DNA from: a bacterium
Lineage (GTDB): Bacteria; Patescibacteriota; Minisyncoccia; Phycocordibacterales; UBA5272
Length of the DNA: 64,000 nucleotides
Direction: 5' to 3'
Assembly: GCA_027482685.1 (NCBI GenBank)
Contig: JAIXVU010000008.1
Coordinates: 4,652 to 68,651 of the forward strand
How positions within the stretch are numbered: the first letter of the stretch is position 1; every line of letters starts with the position of its first letter. Positions 5,597 to 56,514 of this stretch are shown in pieces. The translations under genes and the position numbers were made by a program. Below the pieces are notes generated by a model, which had not been told where the DNA came from, made no database searches, and saw nothing but the letters and a program-made list of their open reading frames with translations.

Positions 5597-5680
5597 ATAT
5601 TGGATGGTTATTAGTAATTAGTTATTGGTTATTAGTTTGGTTCATAATGTATTGACTAATTACTAATTACAAATAACTAA

Positions 5681-7635
<1,955 letters not shown>

Positions 7636-10666: not shown

Positions 10667-10685
10667 AGTTGAGAGTGTTAGTTAA

Positions 10686-11090
10686 TTAGTAATTATTGGT
10701 TAGTTGCTTGATGATACGTTCGGCACTTCCATCGTATACTTTTTCACGGAAACGTGCACGGAATCCTGCAAGGAGATTTTTATTAATAATTACAGTGTGT
10801 TGATTACTCTTTTGGTCGATATTAGTAATAATTTTTCTAATAGACGAATCAGATAGTGGAAAAGGTGTTTCAATAACGAGGGTGTCTTTTTTTATTTGTG
10901 CGGCATGAGCTATTTTTACAGTCCGTAGAATAGCAGGAAGCATACCGAGCAAATTGTACTTCTTAAGCATTGTTACGAGCTCTTCAACTGAGAGAGTTTC
11001 TTTGAGTATTTTATCTGCTAAAGCACGGCTAATGTTCATATGTTTGCTTGAATTATACCTGCATACGCGCGATAAGCGCATTATTCTCAT
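10686..11090 (-). CDS. atpH: F1 ATP synthase delta (OSCP) subunit; start probably at an internal Met
   Basis: Sits between atpF and atpA; the OSCP-like C-terminal half is recognisable; the annotated start overlaps atpF by 38 nt. Confidence 0.6.
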   Translation of the reverse strand: MRIMRLSRVCRYNSSKHMNISRALADKILKETLSVEELVTMLKKYNLLGMLPAILRTVKIAHAAQIKKDTLVIETPFPLSDSSIRKIITNIDQKSNQHTVIINKNLLAGFRARFREKVYDGSAERIIKQLTNNY

Positions 11091-11550: not shown

Positions 11551-11637
11551 ACGTACATACTGTTATTAGTAATTAGTAATTTGTTATTAGTTGAATGTAT
11601 ACGCACACACTAATTACTAATTACCAATAACTAATTA

Positions 11638-11856
11638 CTACCCAAGGAGGAAGAACGCTACGAGCGCGAATATAGCCGTTGTTTCTGTCATTGCAACCGC
11701 GATGATCATCTTTGAGAAGATAGATGCCTCAACATCTGGGTTACGTCCGATTGCTTCCATAGTCTTACCTACGAGGTATCCTTGTCCGATTGCTGTTCCT
11801 AGCATTGCTAGAATACACATTCCTTTTGCGATATAAATTGCTGCTTCTGGTGTCAT
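11638..11856 (-). CDS. atpE: Fo ATP synthase c subunit
   Basis: It is a two-TM hairpin with a conserved carboxylate (AMTETTAIFALV); 72 aa. Confidence 0.9.
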   Translation of the reverse strand: MTPEAAIYIAKGMCILAMLGTAIGQGYLVGKTMEAIGRNPDVEASIFSKMIIAVAMTETTAIFALVAFFLLG

Positions 11857-12060
11857 AAAATACTAGTTGTTAGTTTTTAGTAATTAGTTATTAGTTGAAT
11901 TCATAATACTGAACCCAAAAATATCCAACTACATTTCAATAAAAATTCGCCTTGCGGGCTGATAAAGGTATTATAGCAGAAAAATAAAAGTTTGTATTGT
12001 GGGCACGGTAAATGCTGTCAGTTACTTGATAGCCACCAGCTAATTGAATAATTTTCTAAA

Positions 12061-31485: not shown

Positions 31486-32016
31486 TTGTATGATATAGTG
31501 GGAAGTATGAGTATTTCCCCTTCACAAAACCCCATAGAAAAGCTTGAAAATATGGCAATATCTCTAACTCGAGGTATAGGATCCATATGGTCAGTGATCA
31601 TCCATACACTCCTTTTCGCAAGTGCTTTTATTTCTATTCTATTGGGGGCAGATGTCGACAGGGTGCTGCTTGTTCTTACTACCATTGTCTCACTCGAAGC
31701 AATTTATCTCTCAATATTCATCCAGATGAGTGTCAACAACCAGGCAAAAGCTATAGCAAGTGTAGAGAAGGATATTGATGAAATTTCTCATGATGTAGAA
31801 GAAATTGCAGAGGATGTGGAAGGCATCGCAGAAGATGTTGAGGAAATTGCTGAAGACGTTGAAGAAATTGCTGAAGATGTAGAGGACATCCAAGAAGACA
31901 TGGAAGAGATTCAAGAAGATGTAGAAGGCATCCAAGAGGATATCGATGAGATACAGGAGGATGTTGAAGAGATTCAAGAGGCAGAGGATGACTCAGAAAA
32001 GAAACTTACTGCCTAG
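31486..32016 (+). CDS. Two-TM membrane protein (DUF1003-like) with acidic heptad-repeat tail
   Basis: TM hairpin followed by ~10 repeats of (E/H)D(V/I)(E/D)EI(A/Q). Confidence 0.5.
   Translation: MYDIVGSMSISPSQNPIEKLENMAISLTRGIGSIWSVIIHTLLFASAFISILLGADVDRVLLVLTTIVSLEAIYLSIFIQMSVNNQAKAIASVEKDIDEISHDVEEIAEDVEGIAEDVEEIAEDVEEIAEDVEDIQEDMEEIQEDVEGIQEDIDEIQEDVEEIQEAEDDSEKKLTA
31771..31980 (+). repeat. Coding 21-bp imperfect tandem repeat (~10 units)
   Basis: gatgt(a/t)ga(a/g)ga(a/g)at(t/c)gc(a/t)ga(a/g) units encode the EDVEEIA heptads. Confidence 0.8.
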
Positions 32017-35204: not shown

Positions 35205-35272
35205 TAAATTTTAGTATACAGAAAATAGGCATACAAATGAAAACTAGACTTAAACTAAAGTTTAGTTTCTGT

Positions 35273-35300
35273 TGTGCGCCGGGGTTGGAATTTCACAACC
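35273..35300 (-). repeat. Diverged partial copy of the tRNA-Tyr 3' end (T-arm plus acceptor 3' strand)
   Basis: tgcgccggggttggaatttcacaacc versus the tRNA's tgcgccgggttggatttgaaccaacg. Confidence 0.6.
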
Positions 35301-35407
35301 TTCATTCGCTTCACTCATTACGGTTTAGAAGACCGCTGCGGTTTCTATTCTTCCGCTACGGGAAACTAAACACGTTTCCCGACCCTTTTCCTTATTTAAA
35401 TCCAGCC

Positions 35408-35450
35408 GACAGTAAAAATAAAACAACAATGAAAAGCTTTTCATTGTTGT
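35408..35450. terminator. Long perfect palindrome downstream of tRNA-Tyr
   Basis: AAATAAAACAACAATGAAAAGC/TTTTCATTGTTGTTTTATTT gives a ~20-bp stem with flanking T-run. Confidence 0.6.
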
Positions 35451-35462
35451 TTTATTTCTATG

Positions 35463-38401: not shown

Positions 38402-38750
38402 ACTAGATAGTTATTAGCTTATAGGCGATAGCCGTTAGCTAATTCAAATTACAAATTGAATTAAAGAAACTAATTACAAATTACTAATAACCAATTACTA
38501 CATATACAGTGTATCAGTATTCCGGCATTCGGTCGTGGTGGATAAGCGGACAATTCGGGAATGGTGAGGAGTTGGTTCAGTCGAATTTTTTGAGTACAAA
38601 AAATTCGACACTTTTACTCCATCACCTCCCCTAACAATGCCAAAATGTAACATCTGAGTCAACTTGACATTTTTATATAAAGTAGTAGTATGATGAAGTC
38701 GTTCATTTCATCAACATTGCCTAAAAAGCAGTCAAACAGTAGAGGAATCA

Positions 38751-40222: not shown

Positions 40223-41584
40223 TTAACCATTGACCCTACTCGTATACTTTTCTCCCACTTCCTTCATCGCTTCCACCAACCGCTCTATATCTTTCTTCGT
40301 TGTACTACGTCCGAATGTTATACGAATATTCTCTAGTGCTTCTTTCTTATCCACACCGAGTGCTTCTATGACATAACTACCATCAGTCTCACTAGACGCA
40401 CACGCGCTCTTGTGTGACACCGCGAATCCAAGCGCATCTAACCGTAGTATCATCTCTTCGCTACTTATGCCAGGTACTCTACAGTTAATGTTATTAGGCA
40501 GTCGCTTCATCGTGCGGCCTGTTATATGAGATTCCATTGCATCATTTCGTGGAAGTGGTTGCTCTTCACCATCTTTAACAGGCTTGCCATGTTTAACTTC
40601 ATCAAATACCCCATAGTAAGTTATGGATGGAATTTCTTTTGTAAGTTCAGTTCTACAAAAATCATTTAAGAGTTGTAGGCGCCATACTTCGCGCTCTTGT
40701 AGTTCCTTTGCTTCGCGTAATGCTACACCAAACGCATAACATAGTGGCACTGCTTCAGTCCCACTGCGTAGCTGTCTCTCTTGCCCGCCTCCATAGGTAA
40801 TCGGCTCTACACGTACCCCTTCACGTTTATACAGTAGTGCTATTCCTTTCGGACCATAACATTTACTACTATTCACTGTCATTAGATGCACACGTAGACG
40901 CACGACATCTAAGTTACAATAGTTCGCTGCCTGACATGCATCGATATGATAGTACGGATATGCAGTGTGCGTACGTGTGTGCTCCTTCTTCCATTCTTCT
41001 ATCGCGCGACCAATTTCTTTTACAGGCTGTAGCGTTCCTATCTCATTATTCGCATACATTACACTCACTAGTATTGTGTCTTCAGTTAATGACTCACGAA
41101 TAGTTTGTACTTTTACAATACCGCTAGCATCTACTGGGATGTATGTCACGCGAACTTTACCTGCACGTTCTAGATTTCGAATTGGTTCAAGCACCGCTGA
41201 GTGTTCTATTACAGTTGTAATGATGTGGGGTAGCACATCTGTGTCCCCTTCTTGCTGTTTACTACTTACTACGTGCTTCTTGTACCCTTCATATGTCCCC
41301 ATAACCGCAAGGTTACAAGATTCAGTACCAGATGATACAAAATATATTTCATATGCATGTGCATTCAGTACTGTTGCGCACATACCGCGTGCTCTATCTA
41401 ATACTACCCCTGCTTCTACTCCTTCTCTATGAATACCAGAAGCATTACCGTATGTAATCATCGTTTCAATGAGCGCAGCTTCAGAGAGAGCGCTCACAGG
41501 TGTTGCTCCTGCATAGTCCATGTACACACGATGATGCTTTTTCCACATCTGTAACAAGTTCTTCATATACGTTAACTCTACCAT
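40223..41584 (-). CDS. Class V aminotransferase / cysteine desulfurase (NifS/IscS-like)
   Basis: PLP-lysine region NSSKCYGPKG and the catalytic-Cys loop HKSACASS. Confidence 0.7.
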   Translation of the reverse strand: MVELTYMKNLLQMWKKHHRVYMDYAGATPVSALSEAALIETMITYGNASGIHREGVEAGVVLDRARGMCATVLNAHAYEIYFVSSGTESCNLAVMGTYEGYKKHVVSSKQQEGDTDVLPHIITTVIEHSAVLEPIRNLERAGKVRVTYIPVDASGIVKVQTIRESLTEDTILVSVMYANNEIGTLQPVKEIGRAIEEWKKEHTRTHTAYPYYHIDACQAANYCNLDVVRLRVHLMTVNSSKCYGPKGIALLYKREGVRVEPITYGGGQERQLRSGTEAVPLCYAFGVALREAKELQEREVWRLQLLNDFCRTELTKEIPSITYYGVFDEVKHGKPVKDGEEQPLPRNDAMESHITGRTMKRLPNNINCRVPGISSEEMILRLDALGFAVSHKSACASSETDGSYVIEALGVDKKEALENIRITFGRSTTKKDIERLVEAMKEVGEKYTSRVNG

Positions 41585-41679
41585 GTGGGTGGTTAATAGT
41601 TAATGGTAAATAGTTAATAGTTAATAGTAAACAGTTAATTGCAAACATCTATACTTCAAATTTCAAATATAAAAAAGAA

Positions 41680-42110
41680 AGTGCCCGCCAACAGAGTTGG
41701 CGGGCTGGGTTGAGACGAAGCTCAAGGTTCCCTACGGCATCAGGGGCATGCCGATGGGCGTACCGGATCGGAAATCGATCGGGCGCAGCAGGTGTCTCAT
41801 TGAGTCTCCTGGATGCGTCGGGCCGAGATGGGCCGACAGGTTGTTGGCGCGGCCGTCATGGTCACGCTCAGTCGAGCGAACCGCTCATGTTTGAGCGAGG
41901 CGGGCAAACGTCACGTGGACGTCGCCAGCCTGCCGCAAGCGGTTGGCTCTCGTGCCCGTGCCGATCAGGCGTGGGTGGTGGCGGCCAGCGTGGCCGAGGT
42001 CGTGTAGGCCGCGGCGCAGGTGCCGGCGGTATCTTGCAACACCAAACTTGCATGGCTCGCCTGCCTGATCACGTTAACCAGTATAGCAGGTATTATGATT
42101 TTGTTAAGTA
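41680..42110. other. ~430-bp GC-rich (~65%) apparently non-coding foreign fragment
   Basis: Only overlapping junk ORFs in several frames; abrupt GC shift; flanked by GTTAATAGTTAATGG repeats; minus-strand terminator-like hairpin GCCCGCCAAC-AGAG-TTGGCGGGC at its left edge. Confidence 0.5.
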
Positions 42111-42273
42111 CTAGACACGGTTTATGGTTAATAGTCAATGGTTACTAGTTAGAATGCTTTATAAATAAAGTAGTTTTAGAAAAAATAAAGTTAGAACCAT
42201 AAACTCACAACTAGAAACTAGTCTAATATGCTACACTTTTACGTATTCATATCTGGTATCCAACCATTAACTA

Positions 42274-42774
42274 TTGACCATTGACCAGCTACTACCCATG
42301 TCCTACATCCCCCAACTATTCCTCACCTACCCCACTATTCCGATTGCTTTTGCTTTTGGTGTTATTCTTATTTATGTTATTTATCTACATTATCGGTTGC
42401 GCATGCTTACTCGTGGAAATGGTGCAGCATCTCTTGAGTCCACCATTCATACCGCACTTGCTCATGCAAAAGAAATCCACGAAGAGAACAAACTCATCCG
42501 TGAACACGCTATATCACTAGATAAACGTGTATCTCATGCACTTCGTAATGCGCAGACAATACGCTATAAAGCATTTGAGACAAATGGTTCTAATCAAAGC
42601 TTTTCTGTTGCCCTTGTGAATGAACTTGGTTCTGGTGTTGTTATTACCTCTCTTCATGCACGAGATCGTCTCACTACATTTGCAAAACCGATAGAAAAAT
42701 ACACAAGTAGTTATGAACTAACTGAAGAAGAGCAAAATGTTCTAGAAGACGCACGGAATGCTCATACAATGTAA
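42274..42774 (+). CDS. Membrane-anchored protein (DUF4446-like)
   Basis: N-terminal TM; weak family resemblance. Confidence 0.4.
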   Translation: MTIDQLLPMSYIPQLFLTYPTIPIAFAFGVILIYVIYLHYRLRMLTRGNGAASLESTIHTALAHAKEIHEENKLIREHAISLDKRVSHALRNAQTIRYKAFETNGSNQSFSVALVNELGSGVVITSLHARDRLTTFAKPIEKYTSSYELTEEEQNVLEDARNAHTM

Positions 42775-42802
42775 TTGGTTATTAGTAATTTGTAATTAGT
42801 TG

Positions 42803-42833
42803 CAATGCATGACGCCTACAGCGTCATGCATTG
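42803..42833 (+). terminator. Hairpin, weak terminator
   Basis: CAATGCATGACGC-CTACA-GCGTCATGCATTG with a poor T-run. Confidence 0.45.
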
Positions 42834-42919
42834 TGTATCCCAGCTAATTACTAATAACAAATTACTAATTACCGTCTAGGCTTCTTTACAAAATCATGCT
42901 ATAATTGCGTAATTAAATT

Positions 42920-44465: not shown

Positions 44466-44870
44466 ATGGATGCAAATAAACCAAAATCAGAAAGGCAGTT
44501 AAAAGTAGAACAGGAGGTCCTCGCTATCACGCAGGACTTCTTTCAGCGTGAATCTTCGGGTGCGAGCATGATAACCATCACTCGTACAGATATATCTCGT
44601 GATATGAAGCATGGGACTATTTTCATGACAGTGCTGCCTGAGAACAAGGAAGAAGCGGCGATTAACTTCGCCAAGCGTATGCGCAGTGAACTGCGTCATT
44701 ATGTTATGAAGAGACTTCCTGTGAAAGTGATTCCATTTTTTGAAGTAGAGATTGACTACGGAGAGAAGAACCGTTTGCATGTAGAGTCCCTCCTAAGACA
44801 AGATAAAGAAAAGCAAAAAGCTATCGAGGAATTACGTGAACAGAAACAGAAAGAATTAGAGGATAATTAA
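44466..44870 (+). CDS. rbfA: Ribosome-binding factor A
   Basis: Immediately follows infB; KH-like RbfA pattern. Confidence 0.8.
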   Translation: MDANKPKSERQLKVEQEVLAITQDFFQRESSGASMITITRTDISRDMKHGTIFMTVLPENKEEAAINFAKRMRSELRHYVMKRLPVKVIPFFEVEIDYGEKNRLHVESLLRQDKEKQKAIEELREQKQKELEDN

Positions 44871-44925
44871 AAATAGAGACTTCGAGGCATTCAGTCTTGC
44901 ATTAATACAAATGTCTATACAAAAA

Positions 44926-44954
44926 ACGGGGAACGCTTGCGCGTTCCCCGTGTT
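44926..44954 (+). terminator. Rho-independent terminator
   Basis: ACGGGGAACGC-TTGC-GCGTTCCCCGT followed by TTT. Confidence 0.55.
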
Positions 44955-44990
44955 TACCAAGCCAGCCCTCCCGAGCTGCTTGGCGTATTG

Positions 44991-46064
44991 TCAGTGCACT
45001 GTGGCACCTGCAGCCGTCTGAGCGGCTGCGGTCACGACCGGCGCCTGTGGCGCCGGCTCTTCGTCAGCCTCGACCACATCGGCGTTGCCGTTGGCAATCG
45101 ACGCGGCGACTTGGTCGACCTCGTCCTCGTCCCAGAGCGGACGGAGGATGCTGGCGATGATGCTTGCGGCCGGATTCGAGTGCCCGGACTTGAGCAGTTG
45201 GTATGTCGGGATGTAGTTCCCGACCACCAGCCCTTCCGGGGCGCCGAGCGGTGCCACCGTCAGCTTGAGCGCGTGGATCATCGTGGCCCGCTCGCCCTTC
45301 CCTACCGGCACGAAGCAGGTCTGGAAGATGAGAGGCTTGTCACCGACGTTGAAGCCGAACGTGCCGACCTCGTCCTGGTCCATCACTTTCAAGAGTGAGC
45401 TCCCGATCTCGCCTGCAGCGATCTGCTCCCGCAGACCATCCATGGCCTCGCGGATGTTGATCGCTTCGGCGCCACCGGCGACCTCGATTGCACGCAGAAG
45501 TACGTCCATGACGGCCTTCTTCGTGTTTTCGAACTGCTGGTTGACCTCACGGTCACCAGTGCTCGCCCGCTGGAAGTACCGGCGCTTAGCCGGGTCGTCG
45601 TGCGAAGCGATTGATCGCAACTCATCGAAAAAGATGAAGAAGCCGACCGGCACCTTCCCGTTCTCCGAGCCGATCACCTTGGCCGCTTGGCGGTTGCCGC
45701 GCGGATTCGTGATAGTCGTACACTCGAAGAGGACATCTTCGAAGTAGAGATTCTCGACATCGCCGAAGGCGAAGAGAAGAAAATCCTCCGTGGCCTGCAA
45801 CCGGATGGCTGCGTTCTTGAGCGTCTCCTTGACGGGGTCACTCGTGGCAGACGTGCGCTCGACCATAACAGTCAGGTCGGGGTTGTTGCCGGCGGCCGTG
45901 GCCAACTGCGACGCGATGTCACCATGCGTCAGAGCGCTCCTGCCGGTGCGGCCGGTGTGGCCGCGGCGACCGGTGCGGCGAGCACGGCCGTTTGTTTCGT
46001 CGTCGTTGCTGTCGTCACGGAAATTCTGCTTGCCCATGTCGGGACTCCTTATTTGAGAATTCAT
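44991..46064 (-). CDS. Hypothetical protein, GC-rich (~62%) island gene A, basic Arg/Gly-rich N-terminus
   Basis: Strong coding signal; no recognisable domain. Confidence 0.55.
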   Translation of the reverse strand: MNSQIRSPDMGKQNFRDDSNDDETNGRARRTGRRGHTGRTGRSALTHGDIASQLATAAGNNPDLTVMVERTSATSDPVKETLKNAAIRLQATEDFLLFAFGDVENLYFEDVLFECTTITNPRGNRQAAKVIGSENGKVPVGFFIFFDELRSIASHDDPAKRRYFQRASTGDREVNQQFENTKKAVMDVLLRAIEVAGGAEAINIREAMDGLREQIAAGEIGSSLLKVMDQDEVGTFGFNVGDKPLIFQTCFVPVGKGERATMIHALKLTVAPLGAPEGLVVGNYIPTYQLLKSGHSNPAASIIASILRPLWDEDEVDQVAASIANGNADVVEADEEPAPQAPVVTAAAQTAAGATVH

Positions 46065-46150
46065 TACAGGGAACTACGGCGGCTATTCGGTTTTTGCTAC
46101 CCAATCAGGGTGAACGCGATTAGTCGTCGGCGTATTATAGCATAATTAAG

Positions 46151-46209
46151 TACTTTGTCAATATCATCACAGGCACTTAACTTGACAAAAGTACAAAATA
46201 GTGTATACT
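46151..46209. promoter_or_regulatory. Divergent promoter region with palindromic -35 pair
   Basis: GTACTTTGTCAA-N20-TTGACAAAAGTAC; rightward promoter TTGACA-N16-TATACT at 46182-46209. Confidence 0.6.
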
Positions 46210-46307
46210 ATATTCACTGGACTATTGGGGAAGTAAAAACCTTGATAGAGATCCGGTAAGTTCATTGACTTTTCCCGCATTTACTGTAGCGGGTCAGGAG
46301 AAAATTC

Positions 46308-47483
46308 ATGCCGAAGAACAAGGGTGCTGACGGACGCGGTGACAGCAAGAGCATCGCTGAACGCGAAAAGCAGTCGCAGGACGCGAAGCTCCGTCGAAAG
46401 AAAGTCGCCGCTGTCGAAGGCGGTGCGGTCAAGTCGTTCGCCGACCTGACCGCTCTGCCGGTCGAGAAGGTTGTCGTTGCGACGGCGACCATCGACGACA
46501 TGATCAACGGCCGCGTGGCCACTGGCCACGTCATCGGTGTCGGGGAGGGCAACCTCTTCGAGGTCACCCAGAAGGGCCTGACCCTTCGCGCAGCGGAAGA
46601 CCAGGCTCTCACCGGCTACACCACGCGGGGAGAGAACATCTTCCTTCCCTTGTGGTCGCTCACGCTGGACGAGTTCACCTCGCCGCTTCGTAACGGAGCG
46701 AAGAACCAGTTTTTCGCCGACAAGCAGGAAGCGATGTGGAAGCACATCGCTTCGGAGATGACTGACGAGCAGACCCGCGCGCTCAAGAAGCGCTTGGATG
46801 ACGAGAAGGAGTCCGGCAAGTACGTCGGCGAAGATCGCGAAATCTTCGCCCGAGCGAACCGGAACATCAGCGACGCGTTCGAGGCACTCACCCTCGAGAA
46901 CTGCTTCGTGGAGTTCCGGATCGGCAACGATCTCGAGAAGAGCATCGTCGTCGGCGTTAGCGTCAGCAACGGCGCACTCGAGCTTCGCTTCGGCCACGTC
47001 GGTGGCGGGCATGAGCTCGCTGGCAAGGTGATCAAGGGCACCGTCCTCTGGGCTTCCGGCGGGCTGTTGCCCGAGACCTTGAGCGAGGCTCAGCTCAACT
47101 CGGTCTTTGGACCGTCGCTCACCGCCATGCGGTCTGTGCTGCTGAACGGCACCCACCGTGAGGTGGTAATATCCGGGCTCCTGGCTGCCCACCAGCGCCT
47201 CCGCAAGGAAGGGCGGGCAAATCAGAAGGTGGCATCGGTACTCACACTGGTCCCCTCCAAGAAGGTCGAGACTCCGGTCGCTCAGACCGTCGCCCCGACC
47301 CCTGCCCCCAAGCCGGTCGCGCAACCCGCACCGGTGATGACCGGAACGGTCTCTCCCGAACAGGACAACATCACCCAGCTCATCAAGAGCTTGCGTGAAG
47401 CCGGTATGAGCCCGAAGGATATCGGCGAAGCCATTGCGGGCTACAACACCAACAAGGCCAGCTCCGGCAGCAAGTCTGCCTGA
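46308..47483 (+). CDS. Hypothetical protein, GC-rich island gene B (basic N-terminus, Pro-rich linker, small C-terminal domain)
   Basis: Strong coding signal; no recognisable domain. Confidence 0.55.
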   Translation: MPKNKGADGRGDSKSIAEREKQSQDAKLRRKKVAAVEGGAVKSFADLTALPVEKVVVATATIDDMINGRVATGHVIGVGEGNLFEVTQKGLTLRAAEDQALTGYTTRGENIFLPLWSLTLDEFTSPLRNGAKNQFFADKQEAMWKHIASEMTDEQTRALKKRLDDEKESGKYVGEDREIFARANRNISDAFEALTLENCFVEFRIGNDLEKSIVVGVSVSNGALELRFGHVGGGHELAGKVIKGTVLWASGGLLPETLSEAQLNSVFGPSLTAMRSVLLNGTHREVVISGLLAAHQRLRKEGRANQKVASVLTLVPSKKVETPVAQTVAPTPAPKPVAQPAPVMTGTVSPEQDNITQLIKSLREAGMSPKDIGEAIAGYNTNKASSGSKSA

Positions 47484-47520
47484 TCGGCCAAGTGGCTCGT
47501 GCAATGCGAGCCACAAACAC

Positions 47521-47560: not shown

Positions 47561-47638
47561 TTTGTAATGCATTTTCAGTATTCGCAAAAAATACATTTTT
47601 ACGCTATAATCTCTTAACAGTTTTCAAAAAGTAAATAT

Positions 47639-47722
47639 GCCCGGGTGGCGAAATTGGTAGACGCACTTGCCTTAGGAGCAAGCGAGGCAACTCATGAAGG
47701 TTCAAGTCCTTTCCCGGGCACC
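47639..47722 (+). tRNA. tRNA-Leu (anticodon TAG)
   Basis: GCCCGGG acceptor, D-arm GGCGAAATTGGTAGACGC, anticodon loop CTTAGGA, long variable arm, T-arm, CCCGGGC-A; own promoter TTCGCA...TATAAT upstream. Confidence 0.9.
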
Positions 47723-49339
47723 CTTTAGTACATTTTGATTCTCAAGAGAGTCAAAAGGTGGATTAAGTGTTTGTTTATAAGGTTTTTTATCCTTAACATA
47801 AAAGTTCAAGAAGATTTTCCTCATTATATAGTCTAAATCACTCATTTGTGTCATTTTAGGTATGTTTTCTGGGACTTTTTCCATAAGTTTAATAAATTCA
47901 GAATAAGTAATAATTCCATCTTTTTCGTTGTCTAATAACTTTTTAAGTTTAGTTATCTCTTTTTCTTTATCTTTAATACTTGCCTCAATCTTTACAATGT
48001 CATTTCTATAATAATCTTTTATATTATCCGACTCATTTCCTACAAGTAAATCTTTCACTTGTTCAAACCTTTCCTTTAAATAGTTTATTTGTTTTGATAA
48101 CACCAAAATGTTATTTTTCAATATCCCAGAATTTTTTGATAAAACATTTTTCATCTCATTAACAAAATGGTCATAACTCCCTTTACTTGAAAAAGGTTTT
48201 TGTTCTAGATAGTCAGTTGCAAATCCTATTATCTCTTTAGCTCTTATAGATTTATTTCTTTGAGGGCATTCCACTGTATCACATCTGTAATAAAAGTACC
48301 CCTCAGAGCCGTTCTTTAGTTTTTTGCTTGTTATTCCAGGTGTTAACGCTTCATTGCAGTCACCACAAATAATCATTCCAGTCATTAAATTAGCTTTCTT
48401 GTTATCTCCTTTTTTATATCTCTTGGAAAGTTTAATAAATTCTGAATTACCAGTTAGTTTATTTATTCTAAAAAATTCATCAACTGTAATCATAGGAATG
48501 AAGCCTTGTATTTTTATGAGATTAACAACCACACCTTTTCCATACATAAGAATGCCTGTATATACTGGGTCTTTCATTATTGTTAACAACCTTTGTTTGG
48601 TCATTCCATAAACTTTAGGAGATGTTTCTGTATTTGAGTGATAATAGTTATTATCCTTTAAGTAATCACATATTTCATCAAAAGTCTTTCCTTCAAGGCG
48701 AAGCTGAAAAGCGTTTTGCAACAAAACAAAGTTTTCACCATTTGGTATAAGATTACTATTTCTATCTTTGAAATAACCATTCTTTGCTTTGTTTACATAA
48801 GCACCTCTTTCAATACTTTTTTCATTGCCACGCATAACATCATCTGATAATTTATCGGAGTATTCTTTTGAGAGAACAAAAGTAATGCCTAGTAACATTT
48901 TTCCACTCGTATCATTCGTAAATGAAAAACTAGGAAACTTCAAATCTGCTATGATGTGCTTATCAAGCAAATCTATAACCTCTCCCGCCTCTTTCATATT
49001 TCTGGATAACCTATCTGGATGCCAAGCAATTATTCCGTCGTACTTACCACTTTTTAATCCATTTAACATTTCTCTAAAAATGGGTCGTATATCTGGCTCT
49101 TTAGCAGACCTTTTTTCTATAAGAATATCCACCTTCTTTAATTCGTTTCTTTCAGCAAATTCAACACATTTATCAACCTGGTCCTCAATTGAAAAAACTT
49201 GTTTACTTTCTTCATCCGTTGACTTTCTTGCATAGATTACATATTTCAATTTTGCTGTGTCTACATCTCTGCCGTTTATTGGTATTGCTAACCTCAATAA
49301 TTCAGCTAACTCTTCAGGTGTTTTTGGAAAATCTGACAT
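47702..49339 (-). CDS. Large serine recombinase (resolvase catalytic domain, recombinase domain, zinc-ribbon, coiled coil)
   Basis: N-terminal YARKSTDEE...DRLSR; 545 aa; stop codon lies inside the tRNA-Leu T-arm. Confidence 0.85.
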   Translation of the reverse strand: MSDFPKTPEELAELLRLAIPINGRDVDTAKLKYVIYARKSTDEESKQVFSIEDQVDKCVEFAERNELKKVDILIEKRSAKEPDIRPIFREMLNGLKSGKYDGIIAWHPDRLSRNMKEAGEVIDLLDKHIIADLKFPSFSFTNDTSGKMLLGITFVLSKEYSDKLSDDVMRGNEKSIERGAYVNKAKNGYFKDRNSNLIPNGENFVLLQNAFQLRLEGKTFDEICDYLKDNNYYHSNTETSPKVYGMTKQRLLTIMKDPVYTGILMYGKGVVVNLIKIQGFIPMITVDEFFRINKLTGNSEFIKLSKRYKKGDNKKANLMTGMIICGDCNEALTPGITSKKLKNGSEGYFYYRCDTVECPQRNKSIRAKEIIGFATDYLEQKPFSSKGSYDHFVNEMKNVLSKNSGILKNNILVLSKQINYLKERFEQVKDLLVGNESDNIKDYYRNDIVKIEASIKDKEKEITKLKKLLDNEKDGIITYSEFIKLMEKVPENIPKMTQMSDLDYIMRKIFLNFYVKDKKPYKQTLNPPFDSLENQNVLKGARERT

Positions 49340-49446
49340 GCTGTTATATTATCACAATACAAAAGAGAAAAGACGGCTAGAAAATAAAGCTGAAGCACTC
49401 TTGGTTGTTCCAAAATTGACCATTATTAATAAAAAGAGTACTTTGT

Positions 49447-49911
49447 TTAGCGTTTTACACTACCCCATTTATCAAGCATATCTAGCGCTTTCTTTTTTTG
49501 TTCTTTAATTTTTAATATGTTTGCCTCAGAATCATAGTATAAATTACTTGAATCTTGTGGCATTACTCTTGGTTTTCCATATAGACGGTCAAAGAAAATT
49601 TGAATAGCCTTTATGTCACCATTTCTTGCTTTGTTTATAAGTTGAATAAGTATAATTTGTTCAATATCTATATCTTCCAAAGTAAATTTATCTTTATGTG
49701 TTTCGTTATATTGATTTACATAATTTATAGCAATTCTTTCCATTGCCAAATCTATGAGAGTGCTATAATTTCTCACCCCTTTTTGTCTTCCATTCGGGTT
49801 GCCTGACTGACCCTTTTGGAAAGGTTTCAAGTTACTTTTACTTTTAGGATTACTTCCCCGCAAAGTACCGTCTTTTGATATTGTTTCACTATTTCTTTCA
49901 CTGCTTTGCAT
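49447..49911 (-). CDS. Phage-associated DUF5681-like protein
   Basis: GNPNGRQKG motif near the N-terminus. Confidence 0.45.
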   Translation of the reverse strand: MQSSERNSETISKDGTLRGSNPKSKSNLKPFQKGQSGNPNGRQKGVRNYSTLIDLAMERIAINYVNQYNETHKDKFTLEDIDIEQIILIQLINKARNGDIKAIQIFFDRLYGKPRVMPQDSSNLYYDSEANILKIKEQKKKALDMLDKWGSVKR

Positions 49912-49996
49912 ATGTATATCATAATAAAAAATAACAAAATAATACAGAGAAAGTGTATATGTTTATTCTTTGAGCAAATTCATTAGTACCCGTAAA

Positions 49997-50758
49997 TTAC
50001 TCTGGCATAGTTTCTTCTGTGAGAATCACAGGGGGTTGAGCGCTCTGTACAATTTCTACCAACTTTGCTTTTTTCTTTAGCTCGGTCTTTGCTTTTGGCT
50101 TAGAAACATCTAAGGTTGTAGTAATTATTTGGTAAACAGATTCTAAAATATCTTCACTAGAAAAGTTTACCCCTGTCTTACTTTTTAGGTTTTTCTTTAG
50201 AAGCTTAATAACCGACTCATCAAATAAGTATTTTGATAATGAAACTGGCGACAAACTGTCAACTTTTTTCCAATAAATATCAAGTAAATTCTTTGAAATA
50301 GCTTTTTTAGTAATAAGTTCAAACAAAGTAAAACAGTCTTTGTAATCTTTTTCATTGAGTAAATCTAAATCAAAAACAAGTTTTGTGTAGACTGGCTTTG
50401 CAAACATAACCTTATAGAGCTGAAACTGTTTACCATTTAAGAGTAGTATCCAGTCTATACCCTCACTAGCTGAGTAACCCAAACTTTGCCTTAGGTGATT
50501 TTCATTTAGTTTTATACCTAGCGACTTAACTTCTACAACCATCCTCTTTTTCTTACCTGTTTGAATAACATAATCAGCATAACCACCACTTATTTCATAC
50601 TCAGTTTTAATCTCTTCATTTTGAGAGTATCCGAGTACGTTTCTTAAAAAATCATTTATAAGTAATCTAGTGCCAGACTCGTTTAATTTTGGGTTATTTT
50701 TATATGCCAAAACTAAATCTTTCTTATAATCCTTAATAGCATCTTTATGGTTTTTCAT
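49997..50758 (-). CDS. PD-(D/E)XK nuclease-fold protein (HsdR-N/Mrr-like core)
   Basis: GYADYVIQ...VVEVK reads as a D...E-x-K motif. Confidence 0.5.
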   Translation of the reverse strand: MKNHKDAIKDYKKDLVLAYKNNPKLNESGTRLLINDFLRNVLGYSQNEEIKTEYEISGGYADYVIQTGKKKRMVVEVKSLGIKLNENHLRQSLGYSASEGIDWILLLNGKQFQLYKVMFAKPVYTKLVFDLDLLNEKDYKDCFTLFELITKKAISKNLLDIYWKKVDSLSPVSLSKYLFDESVIKLLKKNLKSKTGVNFSSEDILESVYQIITTTLDVSKPKAKTELKKKAKLVEIVQSAQPPVILTEETMPE

Positions 50759-50765
50759 AAGACTG

Positions 50766-51212
50766 TTAGCGAGTTTTATCTTTTAGTTCATCTAATAATT
50801 TTTTCAACTTGTAAGGATTAGCAACGTTCCTTAACACCACTTCTTGCCCCCCAGTTCCAGCAGTATCAATAGAAATAATCCCCGATTTGGTAAAGACTCT
50901 TTGTAGGAATGGTTCAGAAACATACGTATCAGTTATCTTGTTGTAGTCAATACTCACCAAACTTGTTGACAACCATCCTCGGTGGATTAAAACTCTTTTA
51001 TTAGTAAAAGCATAGACATTTGCTCGTTTAACGTAAAATAAGAAGTAGAATAAAACAAAAAGAGGAGCCCCTATTGTGAAAAATGGTAAAGATATAACTA
51101 ACCAAATAATCATATAAAAAATTCTATATTTATCACCGACTGAAAACTCTTCTTTAACTTCTTCACTGTTACCTAAAACTTTCTTCCAAATATCTTGATT
51201 TACTGTATTCAT
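50766..51212 (-). CDS. Membrane-anchored bacterial PH-domain protein (bPH_2/DUF304)
   Basis: TM hairpin followed by a YdbS/YdbT-like PH domain. Confidence 0.55.
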   Translation of the reverse strand: MNTVNQDIWKKVLGNSEEVKEEFSVGDKYRIFYMIIWLVISLPFFTIGAPLFVLFYFLFYVKRANVYAFTNKRVLIHRGWLSTSLVSIDYNKITDTYVSEPFLQRVFTKSGIISIDTAGTGGQEVVLRNVANPYKLKKLLDELKDKTR

Positions 51213-51284
51213 ATTATTAAGTTGTTAAAATTAATTTTTAAGAGCTATATAAAAAACAAAATAGGCACCCCATATAGCGGAGTG

Positions 51285-51405
51285 CCCAAAAACCAATAGA
51301 TTAACTACTGATTATGTTCTCCGCATAGGATGCCTATGCTGTACACAATCAGTAGTTAACCCTTGTGGGTTTTTGATTTATTTCTTATTGGTTTTTGGGC
51401 AGTTT
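51285..51405. repeat. Long imperfect palindrome inside the integrative element
   Basis: GCCCAAAAACCAATAGATTAACTACTGATT...AATCAGTAGTTAAC...TATTGGTTTTTGGGC. Confidence 0.6.
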
Positions 51406-51759
51406 AATTATATCACATAGAGGAAAACACCTTATTACTACTATATAATAAGTTCAATAACTCCTTTGTATATACAAAACTATCTCTTTTCTATTCCAAG
51501 AGTTACAACTCTCCCATCCCCACTTGTTACTTGCTGTGGCAAAGTACCTGTACTTACTGGAGTTTTTGGAAGATGTTGAACTACATCTGTTAAGTTGTCT
51601 TTTCTCATATACTAAAAGTATACCATGCTTAATAAGTAATAATTAGAGTGTCTTTGGCATACTCTTTAGACAGAAACTCTTTCATAGACTTATTCCAAAT
51701 CTTTACTACTTCAAGGTTATTTATTAGTATTTCAAAAAGTTCAAGTGTGGTATGATACT

Positions 51760-51815
51760 CTGCACAGAATAATAAATACCCATACTGTAATCAGTATGGG
51801 TATTTATTATTCTGT
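51760..51815. repeat. Perfect 24-bp-arm palindrome
   Basis: CACAGAATAATAAATACCCATACTG-TAATC-AGTATGGGTATTTATTATTCTGTG. Confidence 0.8.
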
Positions 51816-51822
51816 GAGCATT

Positions 51823-51911
51823 TGAAGCATGTGACCTGCGTCACATGCGGAAGGACTTGAATAGAGGTCGCGAAACTTTATCGACGAGCTTGCGAGGAGA
51901 AGTTTTGTGAC
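51823..51911 (+). repeat. tRNA-associated structured module copy 1 ending in the tRNA-Leu 3'-end duplicate
   Basis: Hairpin GCATGTGAC-CTGC-GTCACATGC, core GGTCGCGAAAC...GTTTTGTGACC, then caagtcctttcccgggcac. Confidence 0.7.
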
Positions 51912-52003
51912 CAAGTCCTTTCCCGGGCACATAAATACAAAAGACAGACTTTCAAGGTCTGTCTTTTGTATTGACTGTGTTTCTATAGAAGCAAACAAAC
52001 TTG

Positions 52004-52082
52004 CTTTGTTTGCGGAAGGACTTGAATACGAGGTCACGAAACCACTTCGAGCAGAGCGAGGTAGTTTTGTGACCAAGTCCTT
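52004..52082 (+). repeat. tRNA-associated structured module copy 2 (degraded 3' end)
   Basis: GCGGAAGGACTTGAATACGAGGTCACGAAAC...GTTTTGTGACCAAGTCCTT. Confidence 0.65.
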
Positions 52083-54611: not shown

Positions 54612-54805
54612 ATAGTGCCCAGGGCGGGACTCGGCTACAAGTTTTCTTTCGCCGACGCCCAAGAAACTCGCAGCCCGCCCCTCGTGGTTTCGCTTGCTAG
54701 CGAAACATCACTGCGGCCCTTCAAGCCTCAACGCACACCAAGCAGTTGGTGTGCTCCCTGGGCACTATGTAAAAAATACGTACATATGTGTACGTATTTT
54801 TTACA
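54612..54805 (-). repeat. tRNA-Leu(TAA)-associated structured module
   Basis: A 22-nt duplicate of the tRNA 3' end lies at 54612-54633; hairpin GCACACCAA-GCAG-TTGGTGTGC; a 29-bp perfect palindrome (54755-54816) runs into the tRNA acceptor 3' strand. Confidence 0.7.
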
Positions 54806-54808
54806 TAG

Positions 54809-55721: not shown

Positions 55722-55800
55722 AACAGTGCAAAAGCAAAGAAGTTTGCTTTCTAGAACAAAAGCACTTGGCCTACCAAGCGCTTTGTTCTACTGTTGTGCC
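55722..55800. repeat. Nested three-way-junction structure
   Basis: The outer 11-bp stem GGCACAACAGT/ACTGTTGTGCC encloses AAAGCAAA-GAAGT-TTTGCTTT and AGAACAAAAGCACTTGG-CCTA-CCAAGCGCTTTGTTCT. Confidence 0.6.
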
Positions 55801-55898
55801 CCCAGTAGGGAGTTCGGTCACAAAACTACCTCGCGTTGCTCGAAGTAGTTTCGCGACCCCTATTCGATCCCTTACGCAAATGAAGCAGTTCATTTGCT
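55795..55898 (-). repeat. tRNA-Lys-associated structured module copy 3 ending in the tRNA-Lys 3'-end duplicate
   Basis: Reading the minus strand: hairpin GCAAATGAA-CTGC-TTCATTTGC, core GGTCGCGAAACTACTTCGAGCAACGCGAGGTAGTTTTGTGACC, then ccctactgggggcac. Confidence 0.7.
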
Positions 55899-55956
55899 CT
55901 GTTGTCGCTGATAATAAAAACACTTCCCATGATTACAAGGTAAGTGTTTTTATTAT

Positions 55957-56031: not shown

Positions 56032-56134
56032 ATTTATGTGAGACATACTATACCATGCAATGGTAAATTATTCTAGAGTCTCCTGAGAAAATATGTTAGA
56101 ATGAAAAAACTTTTTGAAATGTGATTTCAAGAAA

Positions 56135-56154
56135 GAATGATGCAGTGGCGAAAA
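56135..56154 (+). repeat. 20-nt direct duplicate of the tRNA-Cys 5' end plus upstream 6 nt
   Basis: aagaatgatgcagtggcgaa recurs at 56251-56270. Confidence 0.7.
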
Positions 56155-56256
56155 GGTCCATGAGCGCAGCGAAATGTATGAAATAGCTCTGCGGTTAAAC
56201 CGTAGCGTTAGGATGCAGAAGTAAGAAATAGTTGTTAGAATATTTGAATAAAGAAT

Positions 56257-56330
56257 GATGCAGTGGCGAAGAGGCCTAACGCTGCGGTTTGCAAAACCGC
56301 CATTCGCGGGTTCGACTCCCGCCTGCATCT
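56257..56330 (+). tRNA. tRNA-Cys (anticodon GCA)
   Basis: GATGCAG acceptor, anticodon loop TTGCAAA, T-arm GCGGG-TTCGACT-CCCGC, discriminator U. Confidence 0.85.
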
Positions 56331-56332
56331 CA

Positions 56333-56514
56333 AAAAATAGCGAAGCGTTTTTTAAGGCGCAGGAAGACAGCACCTGCGTGCTGTCTGTCGAGAGTCGAAG
56401 CGCGGAGCTATATTTTTCTACCAAGAAAAATAGCGAGCGGCGGTCGGTGAGAAACTTCTGCGACGGCAAAAGTTTACTTGTCGAAGAATCTCCCGCCTGC
56501 ATCTCTAACAAATA
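56333..56514 (+). repeat. tRNA-Cys-associated structured module ending in a 25-nt near-identical copy of the tRNA 3' end plus trailer
   Basis: Hairpin AGACAGCAC-CTGC-GTGCTGTCT; ctcccgcctgcatctc(a/t)aa(a/c)aaatag repeated at 56317-56341 and 56490-56514. Confidence 0.65.

Follow-up and report, generated by a model that had tools for sequence, protein, structure and literature searches.

Large serine integrases are widely used genome-engineering tools that normally depend on a separate protein to determine in which direction they recombine, and the best-studied of them insert within protein-coding genes. Members such as Bxb1, phiC31, A118/LI, SPbeta and TP901-1 share a domain order with a coiled coil inserted in the zinc ribbon, a short identical core at the junctions, and an outer motif that lies 5 bp further out in attP. 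This offset of the outer half-site between attP and attB distinguishes the P-type from the B-type half-sites of these enzymes (PMC11722253). A different layout is found in the SSV-type (‘suicidal’) tyrosine integrases of archaeal viruses and plasmids, where attP lies in the integrase gene, the target is a tRNA gene and the integrase gene becomes partitioned (PMC7253208, PMC8371274). Here we describe a locus in a 64,000-nucleotide stretch of bacterial DNA (contig JAIXVU010000008.1 of assembly GCA_027482685.1, positions 4,652 to 68,651; hereafter the window) at which a large serine recombinase (LSR) gene runs into the 3' end of a tRNA-Leu(TAG) gene. Our reading, to which we assign a probability of roughly 0.8, is that this is a 4,044-bp element of a Patescibacteria-wide family of LSRs that integrate at tRNA 3' ends and carry attP within the LSR open reading frame (ORF). 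Comparison with related loci establishes, at the level of sequence, the boundaries of the element, the in-frame split of its recombinase gene, the geometry of the attachment sites, the family-wide link to tRNA genes and the variable cargo.

In its domains and site geometry the enzyme belongs to the large serine recombinases, with the domain order, the short junction core and the 5-bp offset in attP described above. Unlike those integrases, the window family targets tRNA 3' ends and appears to use the universal T-loop box as its outer motif, its attP lies inside the LSR ORF, so that integration alters the C-terminus, the family yielded no recognisable directionality factor, and the elements span 2.5-8 kb. 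With the SSV-type integrases it has in common the attP-in-ORF layout and the tRNA target, orphan tails being present here in the integrated copies. However, those enzymes are archaeal tyrosine recombinases whose gene is split into two inactive parts, whereas the window enzyme is a serine recombinase that loses its last 44 codons and keeps the canonical domains. The resemblance is one of layout, not of ancestry, and the window family is not an SSV-type member. Another parallel is the integration-dependent immunity of mycobacteriophages BPs and Brujita, which Broussard and colleagues reportedly described in 2013, with attP in a coding sequence and a C-terminal change that acts as a switch. In that system, to which the window family does not belong, it is the repressor gene that becomes truncated, and the integrase is of the tyrosine type; in the window family it would be the integrase gene itself that changes, and a switch role would be hypothetical. 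A full-text literature search turned up no account of serine integrases with an attP-in-gene layout, nor of any in Patescibacteria that target tRNA genes.

The host is a Patescibacteria chromosome of the Parcubacteria type, judging from the source names of homologues and the housekeeping genes in the window. The integration target, tRNA-Leu(TAG), lies on the + strand at 47638-47723 according to ARAGORN and 47639-47720 according to Rfam. On the - strand at 47702-49339, the integrated form of the LSR gene encodes 545 amino acids with Resolvase (PF00239, 3.4e-22, residues 34-180), Recombinase (PF07508, 7e-9) and Zn_ribbon_recom (PF13408, 1.5e-6) domains. The protein matches the PHROG integrase family phrog_95 at 9e-67, and its serine-motif residues Y36, R38, K39 and S40 are invariant across 19 homologues. 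An initial annotation of the window had recognised that the 3' end of tRNA-Leu(TAG) is occupied by a small AT-rich integrative element encoding an LSR, with the recombinase stop codon inside the T-arm of the tRNA, and these points hold. GC content is 26-34% in the element segment compared to about 37-46% in ordinary flanks, and the TGA stop occupies 47702-47704, within the T-loop sequence TTCAAGT. The codons up to ...NVLKG(A) come from the element, and the final (A)RERT and stop come from the antisense strand of the tRNA.

We joined window position 47721 to 51766 as a virtual empty site and compared it with metagenome contigs. One related contig, L063, matched it at 88% identity over 264 nt, unbroken across the join and without an LSR. 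The left junction of the element reads GGGCAC|CCTTTAG, the right junction CTGCAC|AGAATAA and the L063 empty site GGGCAC|AAAATAA, and on this comparison the integrative element is window 47722-51765 (4,044 bp), with GCAC as the only core common to both junctions. At attL this core occupies 47718-47721 (tRNA positions G71, C72 and A73 plus the next base), just before the element start at 47722; at attR it occupies 51762-51765, where the element ends. The predicted empty site is ...CCCGGGCACAGAATAATAAA... (in another rendering ...TCCTTTCCCGGGCACAGAATAATAAATACCC...) and the predicted circle junction ...GATACTCTGCACCCTTTAGTAC... (in a longer or alternative rendering ...GGTATGATACTCTGCACCCTTTAGTACATTTTG...). 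Beyond attR, outside the LSR element, lies a structured unit that we term mini-module A (51766-51930, + strand; defined by folding and comparison with L063), which ends in a 19-nt copy of the tRNA 3' end (51912-51930, + strand). With the 4,044 bp removed, module A would start 52 nt past the tRNA, compared to 25-55 nt in 16 other cases.

The initial annotation had taken this 19-nt direct repeat as the end of the element, and had left a choice between an atypical att logic and a repeat that belongs to a structured module. The repeat is indeed exact and non-random: the 19-mer CAAGTCCTTTCCCGGGCAC has exactly two copies (47703-47721 and 51912-51930), with a chance expectation of 0.03 matches and two copies in 0 of 100 shuffles. 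An element spanning 47722-51930, bounded by the repeat and moved by an LSR with an atypically long identical core, would account for this, and a long copy of the tRNA 3' end also occurs upstream of the LSR in three sister loci. A repeat-based search for far ends found such a copy in only those 3 of 32 LSR loci, however, with 29 missing it, which was the first sign against the repeat as the att core. Downstream of the tRNA, L063 has, in order, a homologue of the hairpin at 51763-51816, a hairpin with a CTGC loop, a long hairpin and a copy of the tRNA 3' end with one mismatch in the repeat, an arrangement that is, by comparison, module A without a recombinase. L073 similarly has, at the same tRNA, a 162-nt module and a perfect 19-nt repeat but no recombinase. 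Scanning metagenome contigs with the 19-mer gave 52 loci, L063 among them, nearly all of them tRNA-Leu genes with a terminator directly after, and none of these 52 encoded a recombinase relative. The long repeat in L013 is found about 200 nt past the detached end of the LSR gene (described below) and is therefore assigned to an adjacent module, and in the window the LSR frame continues at 51765 rather than at 51911. Thus the repeat belongs to the structured module, the recombinase element ends at 51765 and not at 51911 or 51930, and its junctions share just the GCAC expected for a serine recombinase; a 19-nt core is scarcely credible.

Reading inward from attR on the - strand, we found what appears to be the missing C-terminus of the recombinase. 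This detached tail, (G)AEYHTTLELFEILINNLEVVKIWNKSMKEFLSKEYAKDTLIITY (51632-51765, stop codon at 51629-51631), continues the frame of the LSR body. A join of 47722 to 51765 keeps the LSR frame open for 44 codons (...NVLKGA|EYHTTLELFEILINNLEVVKIWNKSMKEFLSKEYAKDTLIITY*), giving 584 instead of 545 amino acids, and the tail region is a conserved translated match to L001 and L002 in the same frame as the joined ORF. The tail is contiguous with an LSR body in two homologues. One is a 448-aa ORF in L002 (5896-7242) that contains a recombinase domain and ends in a complete tail, without a catalytic domain, and whose BLASTP alignment crosses the junction without a break (...SGA|RYHTTLELFE...). Such an arrangement would be consistent with a tandem array, a newer element having its tail fused in frame to an older, N-terminally decayed recombinase body. 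The other is P0078 (577 aa), encoded on the 4,929-nt contig L112, whose two ends overlap by exactly 30 nt. The overlap suggests that L112 is a circle, with a gene content of a full-length LSR gene, a small ORF and an AriA/OLD-like ATPase.

In 13 sister elements, a tail-coding segment likewise lies upstream of the LSR gene and in its orientation, which implies element sizes of 2.5-8 kb, and 12 of 12 extracted tails are exactly 45 codons long when counted from the junction codon. The ratio of nonsynonymous to synonymous substitution (dN/dS) over tail codons 12-45 is 0.05-0.24 in unsaturated pairs, and on this measure the tail is under purifying selection. An AlphaFold2 model of P0078 predicts the catalytic, recombinase, zinc-ribbon and coiled-coil parts to be complete before the junction, with long helices (379-463) flanked by zinc-ribbon strands; searching the sequences of solved structures returned a single weak match, which covers the catalytic domain. 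When P0078 was searched against 1.84 billion cluster representatives, it identified 453 relatives at E <= 1e-30, and for the best 150 of these 453 the alignment never extends past about residue 550, so that public copies are apparently almost entirely truncated, integrated forms. In relatives of the window enzyme, the replacement C-terminus would consist of up to about 25 arbitrary residues from the antisense tRNA, and a tail profile search retrieved only 13 short orphan ORFs.

The attachment sites inferred from these junctions have a consistent geometry. The left half-site of attB (B) is the last 21 bp of the tRNA, comprising the T-loop box GTTCAAGT (47700-47707), a 10-bp spacer and GCAC. The left arm of attP (P), which lies within the tail-coding sequence, has the same box at 51739-51746, followed by a 15-bp spacer and GCAC. 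All 12 elements compared read GTTCRAGT-N10-GCAC on the tRNA side, from the T-loop to the 3' end, and AAAAAGTTCRAGT-N15-GCAC on the far side, so that in every case the distance between the box of the left half-site and the crossover is 5 bp greater for attP than for attB. Junction identity in 11 sister elements ranges from GCAC up to GCACCATTT. Three Saccharibacteria elements at tRNA-Pro obey the same N10/N15 rule with the core CGACCA, and their LSRs are about 31-34% identical to that of the window. In L019, a tRNA-Pro element that we read by eye, the ORF ends just past the core and so has no tail; to date, the long tail is confined to the Parcubacteria subclade. Within that tail, the invariant LEL is encoded by the reverse complement of the T-loop box, and this stretch is therefore predicted to be both coding sequence and binding site.

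Across the family, the LSR 3' end abuts the 3' end of a convergent tRNA in 36 of 38 judgeable loci, and the tRNAs at this position among the fetched relatives are those for Leu, Val, Arg, Gln, Pro, Ala and Gly. Elements at Leu-TAG, Leu-GAG and Val-TAC have LSRs 69-72% identical to the window enzyme and tails 82-93% identical to one another, and all three tRNAs carry the GTTCRAGT-N10-GCAC pattern. In the window, the genes for tRNA-Leu(TAA) and tRNA-Tyr have this pattern too and would be further candidate targets. At tRNA-Leu(TAG) itself, an LSR was found in several related genera (L002, L003 and L006-L009). Such recurrence at one tRNA might also be expected if the LSR gene were a fixed or decaying, immobile remnant and its tail a relic, as might the lack of a detectable tail in L003; excision of the window copy is, moreover, a prediction. 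Against this, the LSR ORF is intact and retains the serine-motif residues, the tail is intact with an exact conserved length and signs of purifying selection, the junctions are precise and matched by an empty site, the cargo is different in every sister element, near-identical cores are found at three tRNAs (Leu-tag, Leu-gag and Val-tac), and one sister element (L112) is apparently circular. We consider a remnant unlikely.

Several points nonetheless weigh against our reading of a mobile element with attP in its recombinase gene. The empty site was taken from a related organism (L063) other than the source population. The sole sign of circularity in L112 is its 30-nt overlap, and a tandem array could give the same signal. 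Part of the tail conservation, namely the LEL motif, could reflect the DNA site and not the protein. The LSR of L003 sits at the same tRNA and has no detectable tail, indicating that some copies have decayed. AlphaFold2 cannot place the tail, which is modelled as a low-confidence helix (pLDDT 27-41). The right half-sites (B' and P') of the compared elements showed no clear shared motif; no recombination directionality factor was identified, a search for a conserved gene of this kind upstream of the LSR gave none, and no cargo gene is conserved across the elements.

The surroundings of the L003 locus (GCA_964497105.1) are collinear with window 40700-62700, including genes for IF-2/RbfA, RluA, tRNA-Lys, tRNA-Cys, DprA and topoisomerase, and the block of tRNA-Leu(TAG) and recombinase element is inverted there relative to the window.

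We propose that the free circle expresses the 584-aa LSR together with a small ORF of 42 aa, and that the LSR would pair attP with the tRNA 3' end, its zinc-ribbon domain reading the T-loop box, as the site geometry suggests. Strand exchange would take place within GCAC (tRNA positions 71-74), and the tRNA would stay intact because the crossover is at its last bases. With attP located 44 codons before the LSR stop, integration would swap the conserved tail for RERT, yielding the 545-aa form, and would leave the tail and the 42-aa ORF at the far end of the integrated element. The mini-modules with the 19-nt repeat would already have been downstream of the tRNA before insertion. Given that the tail is maintained as a protein sequence although it is connected to the body only in circles or tandem arrays, we tentatively suggest, at somewhat less than even odds, that it is needed for the integration reaction or regulates it. 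It is less certain that the exchange of tails would itself set the direction of recombination: attP x attB recombination may be confined to the 584-aa enzyme of the circle, and the integrated tail-less enzyme may be locked or may carry out attL x attR recombination together with the 42-aa ORF. Such a built-in switch of commitment or direction would require no separate factor. Since the enzyme appears to read a near-universal T-loop box plus the tRNA 3' end, the family could be retargetable across tRNA genes.

The 42-aa ORF (MRKDNLTD...GRVVTLG..; 51480-51608, - strand) is located just past the tail and was recognised by its conservation among elements. Of 15 elements, 12 have a small ORF of 38-43 aa (MKKDNLTD...GDIVTLGKK) about 20 nt after the tail stop, and another two have a variant of 75-76 aa. 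No family match was found for this ORF, which is a candidate for an accessory protein or directionality factor. The elements have the LSR body, the tail and the small ORF in common, and the region between the small ORF and the LSR start differs in every element. We also observed a conserved motif, GTATTGAACT(T/A)AT, after the 42-aa ORF (window 51409-51460, - strand) and about 25 nt past the small ORF in L001, L002, L005-L009 and L016. It includes the reverse complement of a GTTCAAT box and could be a candidate accessory recombinase site; in several sisters it is followed by a TTGACA...TATAAT promoter-like pair.

In the window, the presumed cargo slot between the 42-aa ORF and the LSR start holds three genes, all on the - strand. 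They encode a 148-aa bPH_2 membrane protein (50766-51212; bPH_2 at 1e-13, with a PHROG match), a 253-aa HSDR_N_2 or PD-(D/E)XK nuclease-fold protein (49997-50758; HSDR_N_2 at 6.7e-7, phrog_17239 at 1e-44) and a 154-aa DUF5681 protein (49447-49911; 6.6e-14) whose gene was not found in sister elements. These matches agree with the cargo domains named in the initial annotation. Its suggestion of a defence function was not demonstrated, as PADLOC gave two weak matches only, both to the nuclease-fold protein (BrxC at 1.6e-4 and mad2 at 1.6e-3), and no convincing match to a defence model. A defensive role is nevertheless plausible by association, because sister elements hold defence candidates in the same slot: PADLOC matches there include a retron reverse transcriptase (2.5e-103), an AriA/OLD-like ATPase (8e-24), a caspase (2.7e-22) and an SNase-type C3a212 protein (7e-47). 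Other sister cargo in this slot comprises a cyclodipeptide synthase, an LD-carboxypeptidase and an SDH protease. The bPH_2 and PD-(D/E)XK pair, 4 nt apart, recurs at L116 354-1551 and L117 351-1548, where the proteins are 56% and 72% identical to those of the window; this pair is in another Patescibacteria genome, beside tRNA-Arg, with no LSR, tail or small ORF nearby. The nuclease-fold protein is also found alone, without the bPH_2 partner.

A small prophage or phage satellite might be suspected here from the PHROG matches of the integrase, nuclease-fold and bPH proteins and from the occurrence of DUF5681 in phages. Scanning viral contigs with the LSR alignment yielded distant relatives only, three at tRNA-Gly or tRNA-Trp, and those at tRNA-Gly, on IMG/VR contigs, would fit this reading; scans with the single LSR protein and with the P-arm sequence returned no match. 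The segment is 4 kb with four genes and the 42-aa ORF, none of them a structural, packaging or replication gene, and the 2.5-8-kb sister elements likewise consist of an LSR plus assorted cargo only. A phage origin of this kind is thus very unlikely.

The initial annotation had also pointed out two palindromes near the right end of the segment, both of which were confirmed by folding. The first is a branched palindrome of about 120 nt with a terminator-like hairpin and U-run (51288-51262), together spanning 51262-51401 on the - strand. The palindrome proper (51283-51401) has a folding z-score of -8.8 and is specific to the window element, not being conserved in sister elements. The second (51763-51816, + strand) is the terminator hairpin of module A, with a perfect 25-bp stem and a z-score of -10.6; its first 3 nt are the CAC of the attR core. 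Within module A, also on the + strand, this is followed by hairpin 1 (51827-51848) and a long hairpin (51849-51920), in whose outer stem the T-arm copy pairs with a reverse complement of the T-arm. An apparently older tandem copy, mini-module B (51931-52082, + strand), has a terminator (51934-51972), hairpin 1 and long hairpin equivalents, and a 9-nt remnant of the tRNA copy (52074-52082).

Behind each of the five tRNA genes in the window lies a module of about 160-190 nt, the last part of which copies the 3' end of the tRNA concerned, starting from C56; the others are located at 54612-54807 (- strand), 55786-55955 (- strand), 56332-56511 (+ strand) and approximately 35270-35461 (- strand). 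In the fetched loci, 30 of 201 tRNAs (about 15%) have a module behind them, in a sample chosen largely via the LSR and one tRNA-Leu sequence, and modules are absent at the orthologous tRNAs of L007. In the sense of the tRNA, a module begins with a terminator hairpin, an optional reverse complement of the acceptor 3' strand, and a covarying hairpin that often has a CTGC loop. Next come the reverse complement of the T-loop and the 3' strand of the T-stem, an inner hairpin, and the tRNA copy, which runs from C56 to about 3 nt past A73. The 5' arm is a true reverse complement of the 3' strand, with A opposite T where tRNA-Leu(TAA) has a G.U pair. The inner hairpin is of at least four interchangeable types, which reappear across many Patescibacteria contigs combined with various tRNA-specific arms.

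A covariance model of type 1 modules gave 23 hits at E <= 1e-6 in 14 sources. In the alignment of this type, 92.5% of cells pair versus 77% in shuffles, although the alignment was fitted to the model and favours pairing; compensatory changes were found in 21 of 33 pairs, and 20 of 21 sequences retain one particular G.U pair. In 29 of 30 modules, the tRNA-sense strand gives a better fold than its complement (Wilcoxon p = 2e-6). In a search against Rfam, only tRNAs reached gathering scores, and sub-threshold matches of the modules and palindromes were to generic hairpin (miRNA) models. Among 10 mid-size window ORFs, none encodes a tyrosine recombinase able to move the modules.

The initial annotation had regarded the element as the autonomous version of these integrase-less modules, in which case the modules would be non-autonomous derivatives moved in trans by this LSR and both would form a single system. 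The modules do copy the B half-site (C56 to past A73) and are common in LSR-bearing lineages, at 30 of 201 tRNAs in a sample largely selected by LSR or tRNA-Leu, and a module lies directly past attR in three elements and possibly a fourth. That amounts to at most 4 of the 12 tail-bearing LSR elements, the fourth (L008) resting on a weak match of 25.5 bits. The junction of module and tRNA is T55|C56 and not GCAC, and the copy has GACC for GTTC inside the box that the LSR is proposed to read, which together argue against mobilisation by this LSR. The modules also have no sequence in common with the P and P' arms of the element, their covarying stems and one-strand folding do not fit a duplex site bound by a protein dimer, and modules are present on contigs without an LSR, though many such contigs are short. 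The proposed relationship is thus not borne out, and mobilisation in trans appears quite unlikely. We also considered the hairpin module as a palindromic attP with a crossover in the T-loop or at the hairpin centre, and rejected this because of its ill-fitting arms and because the module occurs in L063 with no recombinase present.

Folded single-strand recombination sites are known from the attC sites of integrons and the CTX-phi attP used by XerCD. Like these, the mini-modules have inverted target-like copies about 60-110 nt apart with hairpins, structure conserved above sequence, and strand-specific folding; the likeness is descriptive, and the target of the modules is the tRNA T-loop. Candidate explanations are folded single-strand mini-elements, remnants of T-loop-targeting elements, or structured tRNA-trailer RNAs. 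The modules may be a new class of strand-specific, structure-defined mobile elements or tRNA-trailer RNAs, in which interchangeable inner hairpins are flanked by arms that replicate, in inverted order, parts of the preceding tRNA. That a factor-free tail switch, a retargetable tRNA family and a new class of structured modules should all hold jointly is, in our view, doubtful. A duplication at the opposite end of a tRNA was also observed: the 5' end of tRNA-Cys plus 14 nt of upstream flank is duplicated 118 nt upstream at 91% identity (window 56124-56156 and 56242-56274), mirroring the 3'-end copies found behind tRNAs.

Elsewhere in the window, a GC-rich island (44750-47520, 60-65% GC in a genome of about 40% GC) lies between rbfA and the tRNA-Leu promoter. 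Its ORFs at 44991-46064 (- strand) and 46308-47483 (+ strand) have no Pfam or PHROG match. A second GC-rich patch is present at 41500-42250, and both could be foreign insertions or unusual genes. Dispersed AT-rich intergenic repeats, (GTTATTAGTAATTAGT)n, are found in both orientations at 5607-5685, 10683-10706, 11562-11639, 11866-11905, 38469-38499, 41592-41631 and 42771-42873. Finally, 31771-32001 contains at least eight tandem 21-nt units coding for an acidic heptad-like repeat (D-V-E-E-I-A-E); in this region neither strand has an ORF that reaches 180 aa.

Among large serine integrases, a family that carries attP within the integrase gene would represent a new regulatory arrangement. The use of the T-loop box as a half-site motif points to compact, possibly retargetable integrases with ready landing sites, and to our knowledge the Patescibacteria, with their small genomes, have no established genetic tools. 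For these bacteria, the family would be a main route by which small cargo, such as retron, AriA/OLD-like and caspase genes, is gained and lost at tRNA genes, and the modules would be an undescribed family of structured elements behind about 15% of the sampled tRNA genes.

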